Translations under genes and position numbers: made by a program | Notes under the pieces: generated by a model | What the model was told of the DNA's origin: nothing | Database searches by the model: none | Seen by the model: only the letters and a program-made list of their open reading frames with translations | Shown here: in pieces, positions 3-10,160 of the stretch | Layout of the letters: each line of letters opens with the position of its first letter | Numbering within the stretch: the stretch's first letter is position 1 | DNA from: Opitutales bacterium | GTDB taxonomy: Bacteria; Verrucomicrobiota; Verrucomicrobiia; Opitutales; JAFGAQ01 | NCBI GenBank assembly: GCA_028704125.1 | Contig: JAQVLM010000002.1 | Span: 1 to 31,834 of the forward strand | DNA: 31,834 nt | Direction of reading: 5' to 3'

Positions 3-1646
3 TCGATTATCGTCGGCATTGTATGGCGATCGTCGCGCAACCAGAATACTGCGGCCGACTACTTTCTGGCTGGCCGCCATGTGGGCTGGTTCGTGGTCGG
101 TTGTTCGCTGTTCGCTTCGAACATCGGGTCTGAGCACATCGTTGGGCTCGCCGGATCGGGTGCGAACAACGGGATGGCTCAGGCGCACTGGGAGCTGCAT
201 GCTTGGGTGATGATCATGCTCGGTTGGGTCTTCGTTCCCTTCTATTACCGGTCGGGCGTGTTCACGATGCCGGAGTTTCTGGAACGCCGTTTCAATTCGA
301 AGACGCGCTGGGTTCTTTCGGTTGTGAGTTTGGTTGCTTATGTGTTCACGAAAGTATCGGTGACGGTTTATGCCGGCGCGATTGTCTTCCAAACGCTGCT
401 TCCTGACACATTTGGCACTCCCGAGAACGCTTTTTGGGTCGGAGCCTTTGCAACCGTTATTCTCACGGGGATATACACGATTTTGGGCGGACTCCGGGCG
501 GTGGTTTACACGGAGGTCGCGCAAACCTTTGTGCTGTTGTTGGGATCGTCGCTGATCACCTATTTCGGTTTGAAGCACCTTGGCGGTTGGGGTGAACTCA
601 TCGAAACCTGTAAGGTGAATGCGGAACGCTTCGCCCTTTGGCGCTCAAACACGGATCCGAATTTCCCATGGTTGGGCGTGATGATCGCCTCTCCCGTTAT
701 CGGTATCTGGTATTGGTGTACTGACCAATACATCGTGCAGCGCACTTTGGCAGCCAAGAGCCTCAAGGATGCACGCCGCGGTGCGATCTTTGGTGGTTTC
801 CTGAAGGTATGGCCGGTTATGATCTTCCTGATTCCGGGCATGATCGGATATGCGCTTCATCAAAAGGGTGTCATTCAGATTCCCTTCAAGACAGACGGTT
901 CCGGTGAGCTTTTGGGTGATGCGGTGTTTGCGACGATGGTGCAGACGATGCTCCCGATCGGATTGCGCGGTTTGGTGGTTGCCGGGTTGCTTTCCGCATT
1001 GATGTCGTCGTTGGCTTCCCTTTTCAATTCCTGTGCGACGCTGTTCACTGTGGACATTTACAGCAAGATGAATCCGAACGCGAGTCAGGCCCGTTTGGTG
1101 CATGTGGGTCGGGTAGCCACGGGATTTGTGGTTTTGGCCGGGTTGATCTGGATTCCGATCATGAAGAAAGTTTCCGAAGGGAACTCCGGTCTCTACGACT
1201 ACCTGCAGAATGTGCAGGGTTTCCTGGCTCCTCCGATTACGGCAGTATTCCTGCTCGGCTTGTTCTTCAAGCGCATCAATTCAACCGGAGCATTGGTCGG
1301 GTTGTTAACCGGGTTTGTGCTCGGGATGCTCAAGCTTACGATTCAGACACTTTCGAAGAGTGGTGCCTTGGGTTCCGAAGGTATGTTGTATCAGATTGGT
1401 GAATACAATGGTTACTACTTCTCGGGTGTGCTCTTTATCTTCAGCGTGATCCTGGTGATCGTGGTGTCGTTGATGAGCCCCGCTCCAAGCGAAGAACAAG
1501 TGGCCGGTCTGACCTATGGCTCGATGTCCGATGCGCAACGCAAGGAAAACCGCGAGAGTTGGAACTGGATGGATGTCGTTGCGACCATTGGTGTGCTCGG
1601 GCTGGTGGTTGGGGTTTACATCTACTTCAGTTTCTGGCTGAGCTAA
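3..1646 (+). CDS. Sodium:solute symporter (SSS/SGLT-like sugar cotransporter), 5'-truncated by the window edge
   Basis: Frame is open from position 3 (SIIVGIVWRSSRNQNTAADYFLAGRHVGWF), so GTG at 81 is internal. SSS motifs DYFLAGR, ASNIGSEH, GGLRAVVYT, WYWCTDQYIVQR, many TM segments; galM downstream. Confidence 0.93.
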   Translation, partial: SIIVGIVWRSSRNQNTAADYFLAGRHVGWFVVGCSLFASNIGSEHIVGLAGSGANNGMAQAHWELHAWVMIMLGWVFVPFYYRSGVFTMPEFLERRFNSKTRWVLSVVSLVAYVFTKVSVTVYAGAIVFQTLLPDTFGTPENAFWVGAFATVILTGIYTILGGLRAVVYTEVAQTFVLLLGSSLITYFGLKHLGGWGELIETCKVNAERFALWRSNTDPNFPWLGVMIASPVIGIWYWCTDQYIVQRTLAAKSLKDARRGAIFGGFLKVWPVMIFLIPGMIGYALHQKGVIQIPFKTDGSGELLGDAVFATMVQTMLPIGLRGLVVAGLLSALMSSLASLFNSCATLFTVDIYSKMNPNASQARLVHVGRVATGFVVLAGLIWIPIMKKVSEGNSGLYDYLQNVQGFLAPPITAVFLLGLFFKRINSTGALVGLLTGFVLGMLKLTIQTLSKSGALGSEGMLYQIGEYNGYYFSGVLFIFSVILVIVVSLMSPAPSEEQVAGLTYGSMSDAQRKENRESWNWMDVVATIGVLGLVVGVYIYFSFWLS

Positions 1647-1657
1647 TCGCATTTGTC

Positions 1658-1699
1658 AGGGCCCTTCCTCGGGGTGATATCCGGGAGGGCCCTTTTTTT
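1658..1699 (+). terminator. Intrinsic terminator hairpin after the symporter
   Basis: AGGGCCCTTCC...GGGAGGGCCCT inverted repeat followed by a T7 tract, 12 nt after the stop codon. Confidence 0.75.
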
Positions 1700-1728
1700 G
1701 TCTTTGCCTCAATTCTCCAAATATGCAT

Positions 1729-2892
1729 ATGAAAACAAAAAAAATCCTACCCTTCATGATACTTGCTTCTCTTCTTGGTTCCGGCGTTAATGCTGGTGAT
1801 TGCTGCGATGGTTGTTCCGTTCCTTCCCGCTCCTTTGGCGAACTTGCGGATGGACGGACGGCGATGATCTACACCCTCACCAATAAATCCGGCATGAAGG
1901 CCGAGATCACCAACTATGGTGGTGTGGTGGTGAACCTCATGGTTCCGGATCGGGACGGAAAACTCGCCGATGTGGCCCTCGGATTTGACAAGGTCAGCGA
2001 TTACGAAAAGAAGGTCTACTATTTCGGTAGCCTGATCGGACGTTACGGAAACCGCATTGCCAATGGGACCTTTGAACTGGATGGAGTGACCTACAAGCTT
2101 CCGCTGAACAATGAACCGGGCGGAATTCCCTGTTCGCTGCATGGTGGATTCAAGGGCTTTCACACTGTATTGTGGGATGCTGAACCCTTGGTGGCGGAAG
2201 ATGGAACCCAAGGTTTGAAACTTTCCTATGTGAGCAAAGATGGAGAGGAAGGTTATCCCGGAAACCTCACGGTTACGGTTCACTACTGGTTGGATGCCGC
2301 CAACGCACTCCGGATCAGCTACGAGGCAAGCACGGACAAGGCGACTCCGGTCAATCTCACGAACCACTCCTATTTCAATTTGGCAGGAGAAGGTTCGCCT
2401 ACCATCAATGATCATGAGTTGATGTTAAAGGCTTCGGCGTTCACGCCAGTGAATGCCGGATTGATCCCGACCGGTGAAATCGCTCCGGTGGAAGGCACTC
2501 CGTTTGATTTCCGCACCCCGCATCCGATCGGGGAGCGGGTGGACGCGGATCATCCGCAGATCGCGCTCGGCGGTGGCTATGACCACAACTGGGTGTTGGA
2601 CAATCAGGATGGCTCGATGGCGCTCGCCGCGCGCGTTAAGCATGCAGCCACTGGCCGTGTGATGGAAGTTTGGACGATGGAACCCGGTATTCAGTTCTAT
2701 GGTGGGAATTTCCTCGATGCCAGTGACCTGAGCAGCGCGAAGTCCGGCAAGCCGTATCCGAAGCGCTCGGGATTCTGCCTCGAAACCCAGCACTATCCGG
2801 ATTCGCCGAATCAACCGGCTTTCCCGTCCACGATCCTGCGTCCGGGCGAAGCCTACAAGACCACAACGGAATACCGTTTTTCGGCTGAGTGA
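1729..2892 (+). CDS. galM: Aldose 1-epimerase (galactose mutarotase) with N-terminal signal peptide
   Basis: Motifs GRYGNRI, SLHGG, EEGYPG, TNHSYFNL, YDHNW, CLETQHYPDSPN. N-terminus MKTKKILPFMILASLLGSGVNA resembles a Sec signal. Start 1723 or 1729. Confidence 0.93.
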   Translation: MKTKKILPFMILASLLGSGVNAGDCCDGCSVPSRSFGELADGRTAMIYTLTNKSGMKAEITNYGGVVVNLMVPDRDGKLADVALGFDKVSDYEKKVYYFGSLIGRYGNRIANGTFELDGVTYKLPLNNEPGGIPCSLHGGFKGFHTVLWDAEPLVAEDGTQGLKLSYVSKDGEEGYPGNLTVTVHYWLDAANALRISYEASTDKATPVNLTNHSYFNLAGEGSPTINDHELMLKASAFTPVNAGLIPTGEIAPVEGTPFDFRTPHPIGERVDADHPQIALGGGYDHNWVLDNQDGSMALAARVKHAATGRVMEVWTMEPGIQFYGGNFLDASDLSSAKSGKPYPKRSGFCLETQHYPDSPNQPAFPSTILRPGEAYKTTTEYRFSAE

Positions 2893-2911
2893 GGCTTGAC
2901 GGATGTTTTAA

Positions 2912-3520
2912 TTGTCGCGGGTTGGGATGAGTTTCATGAAACTTAATGAAATTCTTATACGGGTGATCACGGATCCCGGGTATCCGGATCCGCTTCGGCG
3001 CAAGAAAGGGGAACTTAGAGTTCTCCTTTCCTGCGTGGTTTTAGGGAGTATCATTCTGGTGGCGTATTATTTGAGTCCTTTCCAGACCAGATGGATGGCT
3101 GCCCGGGTGAGTCTCCCCGAGATGGTGTACCAGAGTTATGCTCCCGTTCCTTCTTTGGAAACTGCTGAGCTGGTAGTCAAACGGTTGTCGGGGCTTGCCA
3201 ACTGGCGAATCGGGTGGATGGCGGCAGCGTTTTCTGTGGGAATGCTTTCCTGTATCGGACGGTTCCAACGATGGAAATTCGGTTTTGTTGGAATCTCGAT
3301 GCTGTTATTTGCCTCAGGCTATCTGGAGGTGCAAAGGATTGATTCATTCCAAGTTGGATTGTTGTCCCATTGGGGTACTCAACTAAGTGAGACCTCGTTT
3401 CAAGCTTTGAGCCGAACGGTCTATTTTCACGGAGTGTGGAAGTTTGTGGCGCTTGTTTTTGCAGGGGTTCTTTCTGTTGGATTCTTTATGAAATGGATGC
3501 GATCCATTTTTCAGAATTAA
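2912..3520 (+). CDS. Hypothetical membrane protein (about 4 hydrophobic segments)
   Basis: 202-aa ORF 19 nt after galM on the same strand; hydrophobic stretches; no family recognised. Start may be 2927 or 2936. Confidence 0.65.
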   Translation: MSRVGMSFMKLNEILIRVITDPGYPDPLRRKKGELRVLLSCVVLGSIILVAYYLSPFQTRWMAARVSLPEMVYQSYAPVPSLETAELVVKRLSGLANWRIGWMAAAFSVGMLSCIGRFQRWKFGFVGISMLLFASGYLEVQRIDSFQVGLLSHWGTQLSETSFQALSRTVYFHGVWKFVALVFAGVLSVGFFMKWMRSIFQN

Positions 3521-7018: not shown

Positions 7019-7564
7019 TCAGGAGCAGGTTTTCACCAATCGGGTGAAGTCCCTGAAGGCCGGGTGGGATACCTCGCCGAGTATCGAATAAAACACGGTC
7101 TCCGAGGGGAGTGAAAGGATGCCGTGTTGCGTCAGTGCCTGGGTGACGGCATCCCCATCCTGTGCCCGTCTGCAGCCGATGCAGTCGCTGAGCAGGGTGG
7201 TTTCAAATCCGTCGGCGTGTGCGCCGATGACCGTTTGGTAAACGCAGATCGGGGTTTCAATACCGCCGACGAGGAGGTGTTGAACTCCATCTTCTTTGAG
7301 GCGGCTTTGCAGTGCCTCCAAGGGCCAGGCCGAGAAGGTCGATTTATCCCATTCCGGAGCTTCGGGTGCGAGGTCTTTCAGCTCGGGAAGAGTGGCTCCC
7401 AGTTTGTCCCTGATCTGGGTGGTGAAATATACCGGAATGCCGAGCAGTTGGCATGCGCGGATCACAAAACCGCAGCGTTTCCGGATGCTGGATTCTTCCG
7501 GGATGGATTTGAGAAATGGCTCCTGCAGGTCGATCAGGAGACAGGCAACTCCGGGGGTGTTCAT
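7019..7564 (-). CDS. Isochorismatase-family cysteine hydrolase
   Basis: LLIDLQE, DKSTFSA, GGIETPICVYQT motifs; 181 aa. Confidence 0.88.
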   Translation of the reverse strand: MNTPGVACLLIDLQEPFLKSIPEESSIRKRCGFVIRACQLLGIPVYFTTQIRDKLGATLPELKDLAPEAPEWDKSTFSAWPLEALQSRLKEDGVQHLLVGGIETPICVYQTVIGAHADGFETTLLSDCIGCRRAQDGDAVTQALTQHGILSLPSETVFYSILGEVSHPAFRDFTRLVKTCS

Positions 7565-7644: not shown

Positions 7645-7812
7645 TTACTTGATTTCCTTGTGGAGGGTGTGACGACCCAGAGATGGGTTGTACTTCATTT
7701 TTTCCACGCGGTTAGGCTGTGTCTTTTTGTTACGGCTGCTCATGTAGCGGGAAGGGTGTTTGCCTTCCTTGCGGGCTTCCGTGCATTCGATGATAATGTG
7801 TTCCCTCGGCAT
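7645..7812 (-). CDS. rpmG: 50S ribosomal protein L33 (55 aa, below the ORF-track cutoff)
   Basis: Manual translation: MPREHIIIECTEARKEGKHPSRYMSSRNKKTQPNRVEKMKYNPSLGRHTLHKEIK*, with L33 motifs RY..KN/KK, KYNP, HTLHKE; followed by a terminator. Confidence 0.95.
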   Translation of the reverse strand: MPREHIIIECTEARKEGKHPSRYMSSRNKKTQPNRVEKMKYNPSLGRHTLHKEIK

Positions 7813-7867: not shown

Positions 7868-9229
7868 CTAAAAGTATCCACCGATCTTATTTTCGGTGAG
7901 CAGGATCATGTCGCCGCCGCTGAACAGGCTGACATGGCCCGTGCTGGATGATACGACAATCGCCACGCACTTGAAACTGAGCGAGATCCCGGCTGCGGCG
8001 GCATGGCGTGATCCGAGCCCGCTGGGGAGGTTTTGGGGATATTGGGTCGGGCGCAAAAGGCTGCCGGCGGATTCGACGACCCCGTTGCCCTTGATGACGA
8101 AAGCACCATCGATGCTGGACAATTCCTTGATGGTTTCGTCCATGAACGGGTTGAGGACATTGCGTTCATCCTCGCTGTATCCGTAGAACGGGTTGAGCAG
8201 GAGAGGTTGGGAGTGTTCGAGCACCTTCTCGGAATCCCCGAGGACAAAGAGCGATCCGACCGGCTTTCCCTCACGGCCCTCCAGGGAGAGCTCCGTGGCG
8301 ATGGAGAGCACCCGTTCGAGAACTTCGACTTGGATACCCGGAGGGATCACATTGGGGCGACCTGGAATGAGGGATTGGAACTCGCGGTCAACATCGATGA
8401 TGAGGATCGTGTCGAGCAGGTTGCTGCGCGGGAGACCGCCGACGCAACAGACGACGTCCTGAGTGGTGAATACCCCTTTACCGAGGCCGATAATAAACGC
8501 ACTGCGCAACTGTGACAGGCGCGAGTTCGAAAAAGTGCGGATCGGGATGACCGTATCGATCTGGGGACGCGTCGCGGCGTATTCTGTCTTGCCGGGCGAA
8601 ACCAGAACCGTGCGGATTCCCTTGATATCGATTCCAAGCTCAAATGCCCCACCCGTAAAGGTGTCGCCGAAGATCATCAGGGAGGTGCATTGCGACATCA
8701 TCGCGATCTTTTCCGCTTCGCGCAGGAGGTTCCGGTTGATGCGGGAATACTCGATTTGCGGAAGACTCGAACCGCCTCCAAGCGCATCCCGAACAGCCGA
8801 CTTGAACTCATCGAGCGAGTCTGATCCGGTCAAGTTGTCGACAATGTTCTCGTCCTGCAGAATCTGCGCGATATCCGAGAGCACGCGGACATAGTTGCGG
8901 GCTCTGTCGTTTACAAGGAGCATCACGACAACCCGGACTTTCCCATACGCACTTGGGCTATCATGGGAGAGCCCGTCCGGGCATCGGCCGATCGCGATCC
9001 CGTAACGTTTGTTCCACGGTATCCGCGCATAGGGCATGGCAATGCCTTCCCCAAGGTAGGTGGTTCGGGTTTTTTCTTTCTCAATCAAGTCCTTGAGGAT
9101 TGCGTCCTTGGAGAAGCCCTCCTGGGAATCCAGACCGAACAAGTCGATCAGTTCCCCAAACGCACCCCTCAGATCCTTGCTCTTGAGATCGACGATTCTC
9201 GAGTGGGTGACAAGCCGGTCGAAGCGCAT
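7868..9229 (-). CDS. Diadenylate cyclase (DisA_N/DAC, DacZ/CdaZ-like) with N-terminal PTS EIIA(Ntr/Fru)-like domain
   Basis: C-terminal DAC: ELSLEGREGKPVGSLFV, SIDGAFV, GLGSRHAAAA, AIVVSSSTG. N-terminal EIIA-like: EKEKTRTTYLGEGIAMPYAR. Confidence 0.88.
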   Translation of the reverse strand: MRFDRLVTHSRIVDLKSKDLRGAFGELIDLFGLDSQEGFSKDAILKDLIEKEKTRTTYLGEGIAMPYARIPWNKRYGIAIGRCPDGLSHDSPSAYGKVRVVVMLLVNDRARNYVRVLSDIAQILQDENIVDNLTGSDSLDEFKSAVRDALGGGSSLPQIEYSRINRNLLREAEKIAMMSQCTSLMIFGDTFTGGAFELGIDIKGIRTVLVSPGKTEYAATRPQIDTVIPIRTFSNSRLSQLRSAFIIGLGKGVFTTQDVVCCVGGLPRSNLLDTILIIDVDREFQSLIPGRPNVIPPGIQVEVLERVLSIATELSLEGREGKPVGSLFVLGDSEKVLEHSQPLLLNPFYGYSEDERNVLNPFMDETIKELSSIDGAFVIKGNGVVESAGSLLRPTQYPQNLPSGLGSRHAAAAGISLSFKCVAIVVSSSTGHVSLFSGGDMILLTENKIGGYF

Positions 9230-9403: not shown

Positions 9404-10006
9404 TCACGGGTTCAGTGCTCTTGCCGACCCGCTGAGCAGGGGAATGACCTGGTCGGGAGAGCGGGCCACCATTAGGCGATCGAGCTGGTTGGAGCCCAGA
9501 AAACCCTGTCGGGTCATGTGTGCAAGGAATATGAGCAGGTGTTCATAGTAGGATGCGGTGTCGAGCACTGCGCAGGGTTTTACGTGGAAAGAGAGCTGTT
9601 GCCATGTGAAGATCTCGAAGAACTCGTCCATGGTTCCGATGCCGCCGGGCATCGCCACAAATGCATCAGCCAAGGAGGCCATGGTCATTTTGCGCTCGTG
9701 CATGTCGGTGACGCGGATGAGTTCGGTCAGGCTGTCGTGGGCGAGTTCGCGCGTGTTGAGGGCGTGTGGGATCACTCCCACCACCGATCCACCGGCTTGA
9801 AGAACGGCGTCCGCTATTGCACCCATGAGGCCGGTTTTGCCGCCACCGTAGATCAGCCGGATCCCCGCCTCTGCAATGCATTTCCCGAGCTTGAGCGCGT
9901 CTTCCCGGTAGGCTTGGTCGTGTCCCGGGCTGGAACCGCAGTAGACGCAGATGCTTTGAATCGGGAGGGTTTGCGGGCTTATGCCTGAATGGAATACCGT
10001 GGTCAT
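9404..10006 (-). CDS. LOG-family nucleotide phosphoribohydrolase (TIGR00730-like)
   Basis: ICVYCGSS, LIYGGG..GLMG, MHERK, PGGIGTMDE. Start placed at ATG 10006 rather than 10150. Confidence 0.92.
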   Translation of the reverse strand: MTTVFHSGISPQTLPIQSICVYCGSSPGHDQAYREDALKLGKCIAEAGIRLIYGGGKTGLMGAIADAVLQAGGSVVGVIPHALNTRELAHDSLTELIRVTDMHERKMTMASLADAFVAMPGGIGTMDEFFEIFTWQQLSFHVKPCAVLDTASYYEHLLIFLAHMTRQGFLGSNQLDRLMVARSPDQVIPLLSGSARALNP

Positions 10007-10160
10007 GACGCGATAATGATACCATGTTTTGTGCCGCGTTGGGAAGCGGTATGTGCGGGGATGTAAGCCCCCGGGGTGGAGTGTCCGGGCTCGCGATGGA
10101 TTGGCTCGCTGGAGGGGAAATGGTGTTGCAGTGCAGCTTGGAGAACCCATGCTCGGCCGG

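Follow-up and report, generated by a model that had tools for sequence, protein, structure and literature searches.

Can an enzyme that makes cyclic di-AMP (c-di-AMP) do without the residue through which a phosphotransferase system (PTS) would address it, and what is its PTS domain then kept for? This question is raised by a gene at positions 7868-9229 (minus strand) of a 31,834-nucleotide stretch of contig JAQVLM010000002.1 (assembly GCA_028704125.1), here called the window, from an Opitutales bacterium. The gene encodes a diadenylate cyclase (DAC) with an N-terminal EIIA domain, in which Tyr occupies the position of the phosphorylated His. Potassium and osmolyte homeostasis are under the control of c-di-AMP, which is often essential. 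To our knowledge, the regulation of its synthesis has been worked out only in a few CdaA and DisA systems. The Tyr is shared by the whole GTDB family of the host, hereafter f1, and this family retains the PTS relay. We consider it rather probable that f1 has uncoupled c-di-AMP synthesis from PTS phosphotransfer and that the EIIA fold stays on in some regulatory or structural role independent of phosphorylation.

The open reading frame (ORF) is intact and complete, with an ATG start, 453 amino acids plus stop, and an M1 that is invariant among homologs. An earlier note on this DNA, made from its letters, described an EIIA-DAC fusion, and this is borne out by three Pfam domains scoring above their gathering thresholds in the one ORF. 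All of them lie on the minus strand. The N-terminal EIIA domain (Ntr/Fru/Mtl-type) covers residues 1-150 (8780-9229) according to Pfam, phmmer against the PDB and Foldseek, with the PTS_EIIA_2 (PF00359) core at residues 35-144 (8798-9127; 61.4 bits, cut-off 27). The middle domain, DacZ_P (PF21755), is at residues 168-283 (8381-8728; 41.3 bits, cut-off 27.4), and the C-terminal catalytic DAC domain (DisA_N, PF02457) is at residues 315-440 (7910-8287; 74.4 bits, cut-off 27). DacZ_P, also part of archaeal DacZ/CdaZ, has a pyruvate-kinase-C-like fold and is described as probably a sensor (PMC6741144). In the phmmer search of PDB sequences, the N-terminal domain matches Burkholderia PtsN (4gqx and 3urr; 1.3e-9). 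An AlphaFold2 model of the cyclase, for which 120 homologs were used, reaches a mean pLDDT of 81, and its N-terminal domain matches the PtsN/EIIA(Ntr) structures 3urr and 2a0j in Foldseek (TM 0.80 on the target). The DAC domain matches CdaA structures both in phmmer and, with the model, in Foldseek. By profile and by fold, the first domain belongs to PTS EIIA type 2 and the last to the diadenylate cyclases.

The minus strand around the site reads GCC ATG CCC TAT GCG CGG, where TAT (9031-9029) encodes Tyr67. The cyclase segment "lgegiamPYari" is aligned by phmmer with "lgegvaiPHgri" of the two Burkholderia PtsN structures. PY stands against PH, and therefore Tyr67 falls exactly where other EIIA domains have the His that takes the phosphate (His73 in E. 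coli PtsN, His65 in EIIA-Mtl), just as the earlier note had read it at 9029-9031. Tyr67 replaces the His of the canonical G-x-G-[IV]-A-x-P-H signature of PTS EIIA type 2. Judged from its sequence, the domain appears to be a type 2 member by fold and not a canonical phosphocarrier. As to the claim that it cannot be phosphorylated by the PTS, the Tyr at the phospho-His position stands as observed, and the loss of transfer is deduced from established PTS chemistry, under which an EIIA domain without this His would be barred from canonical His-to-His transfer.

Other positions of the EIIA domain also differ in the proteins with Tyr67 (the Tyr clade). Residue 51 (codon 9077-9079, minus strand) is at the conserved active-site Arg position, which we take to be that of Arg49 in EIIA-Mtl and Arg57 in PtsN from how we read the motif alignment. 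At least 90% of homologs have Arg here; the genus of the window and two further Tyr-clade clusters have Lys. The clade-specific changes are Met55 to Arg, Met72 to Trp, Cys31 to Phe, Leu114 to Val, and Ala118 to Ser. All 10 Tyr-clade clusters have His89, at a position that is mostly occupied by Tyr or Phe in other homologs. Where EIIA-Mtl has its second active-site His (His111), the whole cyclase family has Tyr113.

Is the Tyr a property of one strain or of a lineage? More than 2,382 homologs were found in a word-indexed search, and the best 120 all have the same three Pfam domains. Among these 120, position 67 is Tyr in P0001-P0010, whose identity to the query is 70-100%, and His in the remaining 110. 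Family f1 comprises 7 genomes in three genera, with genome sizes of 2.8-5.1 Mb, and all 7 have Tyr67. The 90% cluster of the query contains 12 members from different assemblies, with Tyr in every one that covers the site. Contigs of four public runs from four studies (landfill, pig gut, biogas, and a metatranscriptome) show no difference at 9029-9031. In the maximum-likelihood tree, the f1 proteins form one clade (support 100/100) nested among His-bearing lineages, and the sister of this clade is the His-bearing protein of G038 (support 100/98). From this nesting, His67 is ancestral, with one change from His to Tyr on the stem of f1. Of the two outcomes that the earlier note foresaw for an ortholog comparison, a conserved Tyr or a private one, the first is what is seen: Tyr is kept across f1 as a fixed lineage trait, and His is present in the rest of the order with EI (enzyme I of the PTS). 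The ortholog in one f1 genome, G005, has a 1-nucleotide deletion at about codon 62 (between TYLGD and VAIPYAR; L014, G005:C36, about 37420-37440), which divides it into two frames. This could be a real pseudogene or an error in the metagenome-assembled genome.

The PTS relay itself is present in the Tyr family. EI and HPr are found in all 7 f1 genomes. The earlier note had left the presence of ptsI and ptsH to a genome search, and ptsI, ptsH, and hprK are all in the window's own genome (G000). Its HPr has His15 in the context GIHARPA and Ser46 in the context GKSIMG. PTS_EIIC was not found in this genome, which is 86% complete. Two other EIIA domains are encoded there, both with the phospho-His. 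One is in a Na_H_Exchanger-TrkA_N-EIIA fusion (G000:C259, L005 22-1773, plus strand). The other is a stand-alone EIIA (G000:C548, L003 1468-1938, plus strand), whose gene lies 4 nucleotides upstream of a ClC-type channel gene (1943-3418, plus strand). EI, HPr, and His-bearing EIIA clients are present and EIIC was not found; thus the relay in f1 is evidently of the regulatory type and still has clients, and among the EIIA domains of the window's own genome only that of the cyclase seems to have lost its acceptor. The relay appears to serve EIIA proteins linked to ion transport, namely the Na/H exchanger fusion and the EIIA beside the ClC channel gene. A loss of the PTS in the Tyr family, which was considered as a reason for the missing His, is rejected by the EI and HPr of all 7 genomes and by the HprK and His-bearing EIIA paralogs of the window's own genome.

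Comparison with the other members of the order might shed light on what maintains the His. Position 67 can be scored in 49 genomes outside f1, in which EI was defined by PF05524. His67 is found in all 42 scorable genomes with EI, from 30-odd families. EI was not found in 8 genomes, 7 of which are only 0.8-1.0 Mb in size, and for most of these 8 no HPr was found. Three of the 8 have Tyr, Asn, or a degenerate motif at the site, and a fourth has lost the EIIA domain altogether. These counts of His against EI are descriptive and not a statistical test, because the genomes are related. The Tyr is in G009 (0.9 Mb, L053), where it arose independently, since the sister G049 keeps His (support 100/99). 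G012 (0.8 Mb, L061) has Asn at the site plus an in-frame TAG, and G057 (1.0 Mb, L062) has a degenerate motif. In G042 (0.9 Mb), where neither EI nor HPr was found, the cyclase is a 304-amino-acid DacZ_P-DAC protein without EIIA (G042:C54, L082, ORF 1510-2424, plus strand). The tblastn match between the query and this cyclase is confined to residues 165-446, and EIIA is cleanly deleted. In the wider family, full-length proteins among the 50%-identity representatives have Gln (P0139, P0142, and P0206), Ser (P0189), Asn (P0136), or Arg (P0138) at the site. This pattern fits a His that is upheld by the phosphorelay and free to decay after the relay is lost. The tracking of EI and HPr by the conserved His supports the idea of PTS control over c-di-AMP synthesis in Opitutales, and f1 would be one family in which that control is severed while the relay persists.

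The EIIA domain of f1 is under strong purifying selection. Between G000 and G002, its ratio of nonsynonymous to synonymous substitution (dN/dS) is 0.045 (dN 0.041, dS 0.90), and the ratio is 0.046-0.171 in four congeneric or confamilial pairs with His. On a fixed topology, the f1 stem accounts for 0.024 of the total tree length in EIIA, 0.022 in the middle domain, and 0.027 in DAC. The shares of the branches within f1 are 0.040, 0.045, and 0.031, respectively, and the terminal-branch EIIA/DAC ratios of f1 members are inside the general spread. Averaged over columns, conservation among the Tyr-clade proteins reaches 0.82 in EIIA and 0.81 in the middle domain, with almost no variation in the loop TRTTYLG.G.A.PY.R. 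The idea that EIIA is decaying in these proteins is rejected by the identity and conservation of each domain, the fixed-topology branch lengths, and dN/dS. In the stem shares and the discriminating positions, neither an EIIA-specific burst on the f1 stem nor a remodelled pocket is seen.

The catalytic domain carries both motifs reported in the earlier note. DGA (Asp374-Gly375-Ala376; 8102-8110, minus strand) is invariant in the family. RHA (Arg408-His409-Ala410; 8000-8008, minus strand) is aligned with RHR of CdaA by phmmer against the PDB. RHA, which the earlier note had set against RHR, is no peculiarity of this gene; it is the norm of the class, being fully invariant among the best 120 of the more than 2,382 homologs. 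The wider DacZ-type class was examined with 150 representatives of 50%-identity clusters, which include proteins of about 300 amino acids with DacZ_P and DAC domains only. Here DGA is invariant, the Arg and His of RHA are essentially invariant, and the third residue is Ala in 76, Thr in 17, Gln in 13, Arg in 11, and His in 7. The idea that RHA marks an inactive or odd cyclase is rejected, Ala being the class norm at the third position.

The reading that we favour, in which f1 has uncoupled the cyclase from PTS phosphotransfer, can be put as a series of steps. In the ancestral enzyme, phosphorylated HPr (HPr~P) would have phosphorylated His67 and thereby tuned the output of the cyclase. Such control would tie c-di-AMP to phosphoenolpyruvate (PEP)/pyruvate and to the energy state of the cell. 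On the f1 stem, a single CAY-to-TAY transition may have exchanged His for Tyr, which was then fixed. The relay would still be running in f1, with the cyclase no longer able to accept its phosphoryl group. The EIIA domain would then be a phosphorylation-independent module, locked in a state like the unphosphorylated one and acting in allostery, oligomerisation, or partner binding. Whatever regulation remains might come through the DacZ_P domain, the likely sensor, or through protein contacts.

Several points weigh against these proposals. His is kept in 4 of the 8 genomes in which EI was not found, and therefore the retention of His is not strictly dependent on the PTS. The genomes of one family are non-independent samples. 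The positions that strictly set the Tyr clade apart number 6, 6, and 5 in the three domains, an even distribution, and a remodelled EIIA pocket therefore cannot be claimed. The subfamily has the segment SSSTG where CdaA has SEETG, the Glu being absent. DisA is also without the Glu of this segment, and because of this SSSTG is not taken as inactivating. No assayed EIIA-fused member was found in the literature searched. The domain layout, the Tyr and its fixation in f1, the retained PTS, and the purifying selection on EIIA are shown by the data; that the protein makes c-di-AMP, that the His-bearing forms answer to the PTS, and that the Tyr-bearing domain is locked are inferred.

A bolder reading can be offered tentatively. 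The domain might be a natural "pseudo-EIIA", dead for phosphorylation and maintained by strong selection, which senses the regulatory PTS by binding HPr in one of its phospho-states, or which has gained a new ligand, and so gates c-di-AMP synthesis. If this were true, the forms with His, with Tyr, and without EIIA would make a three-state natural experiment on the link between the PTS and c-di-AMP. In any case, His-bearing, Tyr-bearing, and domain-less cyclases are matched natural variants for probing PTS control of c-di-AMP synthesis.

The alternative that survives best is that the Tyr-bearing domain reads the PTS without taking a phosphate, through putative docking of HPr, HPr~P, or HPr-Ser~P, and reports by binding. 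The retention of HPr, EI, and HprK speaks for such docking, and the strong conservation of the EIIA domain in the Tyr clade, the PY loop included, is in line with it. EIIA(Ntr) controls its targets through protein-protein binding, which gives the idea a general precedent. The clade-specific substitutions next to the site, Met55 to Arg and Met72 to Trp, and Arg51 to Lys in the genus of the window, could equally disrupt a surface for HPr docking, and we regard docking as unlikely.

A neutral loss is quite unlikely as well. By this account, the PTS input became dispensable, the change from His to Tyr drifted to fixation, and EIIA is kept only for the stability of the protein. The change is a single transition, and Tyr arose independently in G009; in other 50%-identity clusters the His has given way to Gln, Ser, Asn, or Arg. 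The relaxation of Arg51 to Lys in three Tyr-clade clusters points in the same direction, as does an EIIA domain with neither a specific acceleration nor a remodelled pocket. However, the EIIA dN/dS of 0.045 and a relative rate like that of the His lineages argue for a function beyond a passive scaffold. G042 illustrates that the domain can be deleted outright when the PTS is truly gone, and the 42 other scored genomes with EI keep His without exception.

That Tyr67 serves a new chemistry, or that another residue has taken over, is highly improbable. Tyr67 would here be modified, for example by a tyrosine kinase, or His89 would be the new phospho-acceptor. The invariance of His89 in the 10 Tyr-clade clusters, at a position mostly Tyr or Phe elsewhere, is what speaks for the second version. 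However, 15 of the 110 close His-bearing homologs, and several genomes, have both His89 and His67, and therefore His89 is a pre-existing variant at an aromatic position; a migration of the His to position 89 is unsupported. No kinase gene is linked to the cyclase gene, and we know of no precedent in the PTS for a Tyr acceptor. For the Tyr-modified site put forward in the earlier note, nothing in support was found. Finally, TAT is one base from CAT, and a CAT codon misread in sequencing or assembly, or altered in one strain only, would have been a simple answer, which has practically no chance of being right and is ruled out by Tyr in 12 assemblies, four runs, 7 genomes, and 10 clusters down to 70% identity.

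How does the uncoupled cyclase of f1 relate to enzymes already described? The EIIA-DAC architecture is already catalogued and not new. We take it to be the class called "DacD", on the basis of the taxa listed for that class. The "DacD" nomenclature reportedly goes back to Corrigan & Gruendling 2013. The earlier note had allowed that such fusions might already be listed in surveys of domain architecture. The cyclase gene is nearly universal in the order of the window, being present in 58 of 61 genomes from 41 GTDB families, including genomes of 0.8-1.0 Mb, and it matches the "DacD" class. Named homologs among the best 120 come from Opitutales, Puniceicoccaceae, Coraliomargarita, and other Verrucomicrobiota. 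The representatives of "DacD" are proteins from Lacunisphaera, Puniceicoccaceae, Coraliomargarita, and Opitutae (Braun et al. 2019, PMC6741144). The window protein resembles this class in its Opitutales/Puniceicoccaceae taxa, in being soluble, and in having EIIA at the N-terminus and DAC at the C-terminus; it differs in that Tyr replaces the phospho-His of the other class members in the window protein and its GTDB family. What is new here is a subgroup that lacks the phospho-His although its lineage still has the PTS. The class itself is already known and common, and no new kind of system is proposed. No description of such a subgroup was found in the literature searched.

The archaeal enzymes DacZ/CdaZ (DacY), among them H. 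volcanii DacZ and M. jannaschii CdaZ, share the succession of DacZ_P (PK_C-like) and DAC with the window protein. These two have been shown to be active (PMC6741144, PMC10249747). The window protein is bacterial, has the extra N-terminal EIIA, and is far below the DacZ equivalog cut-off. Its best NCBIfam match is the haloarchaeal DacZ model NF041371, with 117 bits against a cut-off of 430 and over residues 239-443 only; therefore it is a relative of haloarchaeal DacZ and not an equivalog. With EIIA(Ntr)/PtsN (4gqx, 3urr, 2a0j, and 1a6j), the likeness lies in the fold, the G.G.A.P-x-.R motif, and a permease-less PTS of the regulatory type in the genome. In contrast, the EIIA domain of the window has Tyr for the phospho-His and is fused to an enzyme, whereas PtsN is free-standing. 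CdaA (DacA; 4rv7, 6hvl, and others) has the same DAC fold, DGA, and Arg-His of RHR. It differs from the window protein, which has no transmembrane helices, RHA instead of RHR, SSSTG instead of SEETG, and other regulatory domains.

The gene is the sole DAC-domain gene found in the window's own, 86%-complete genome, and its product is a soluble enzyme and probably the only c-di-AMP synthase of the host. The sequence occurs in metagenomes of wastewater, landfill, sludge, bioreactors, biogas, and pig gut. The host is an Opitutales bacterium of anaerobic digesters and wastewater.

Other genes and elements linked to c-di-AMP were also looked for. The window's own genome, at 86% completeness, gave no PgpH, no DarA, and no c-di-AMP riboswitch. 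Three DHHA1 proteins are encoded there, and the phosphodiesterase search suggested by the earlier note gave one candidate only, a stand-alone DHH/DHHA1 ORF of about 344 amino acids (G000:C3, L075). This could be a DhhP/NrnA-type c-di-AMP phosphodiesterase, the only one seen.

The flanks of the cyclase gene were compared among loci. Downstream at 55 nucleotides is rpmG (ribosomal protein L33, 55 amino acids; 7645-7812, minus strand), which is also called directly downstream in six independent assemblies of the same species that encode the identical cyclase protein. After rpmG follows an isochorismatase-family gene (7019-7564, minus strand). By tblastn, this gene is downstream of the cyclase gene in every one of the 7 f1 loci; none of the further loci that were searched has it there. 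An orphan nuoA-like ORF (about 127 amino acids) is immediately upstream in 18 His-clade loci (L015, L016, L018-L022, and others) and not in the Tyr family. A functional operon partner was sought among the neighbours and none was found; no neighbour hints at a mechanism. Among the flanks examined, a LOG-family gene and an EamA gene are common to the window's own genus only. The former is a LOG/"lysine decarboxylase"-family (SLOG) gene upstream of the cyclase (9404-10150, minus strand), a 248-amino-acid ORF here and 200 amino acids in other assemblies; its true start is probably internal.

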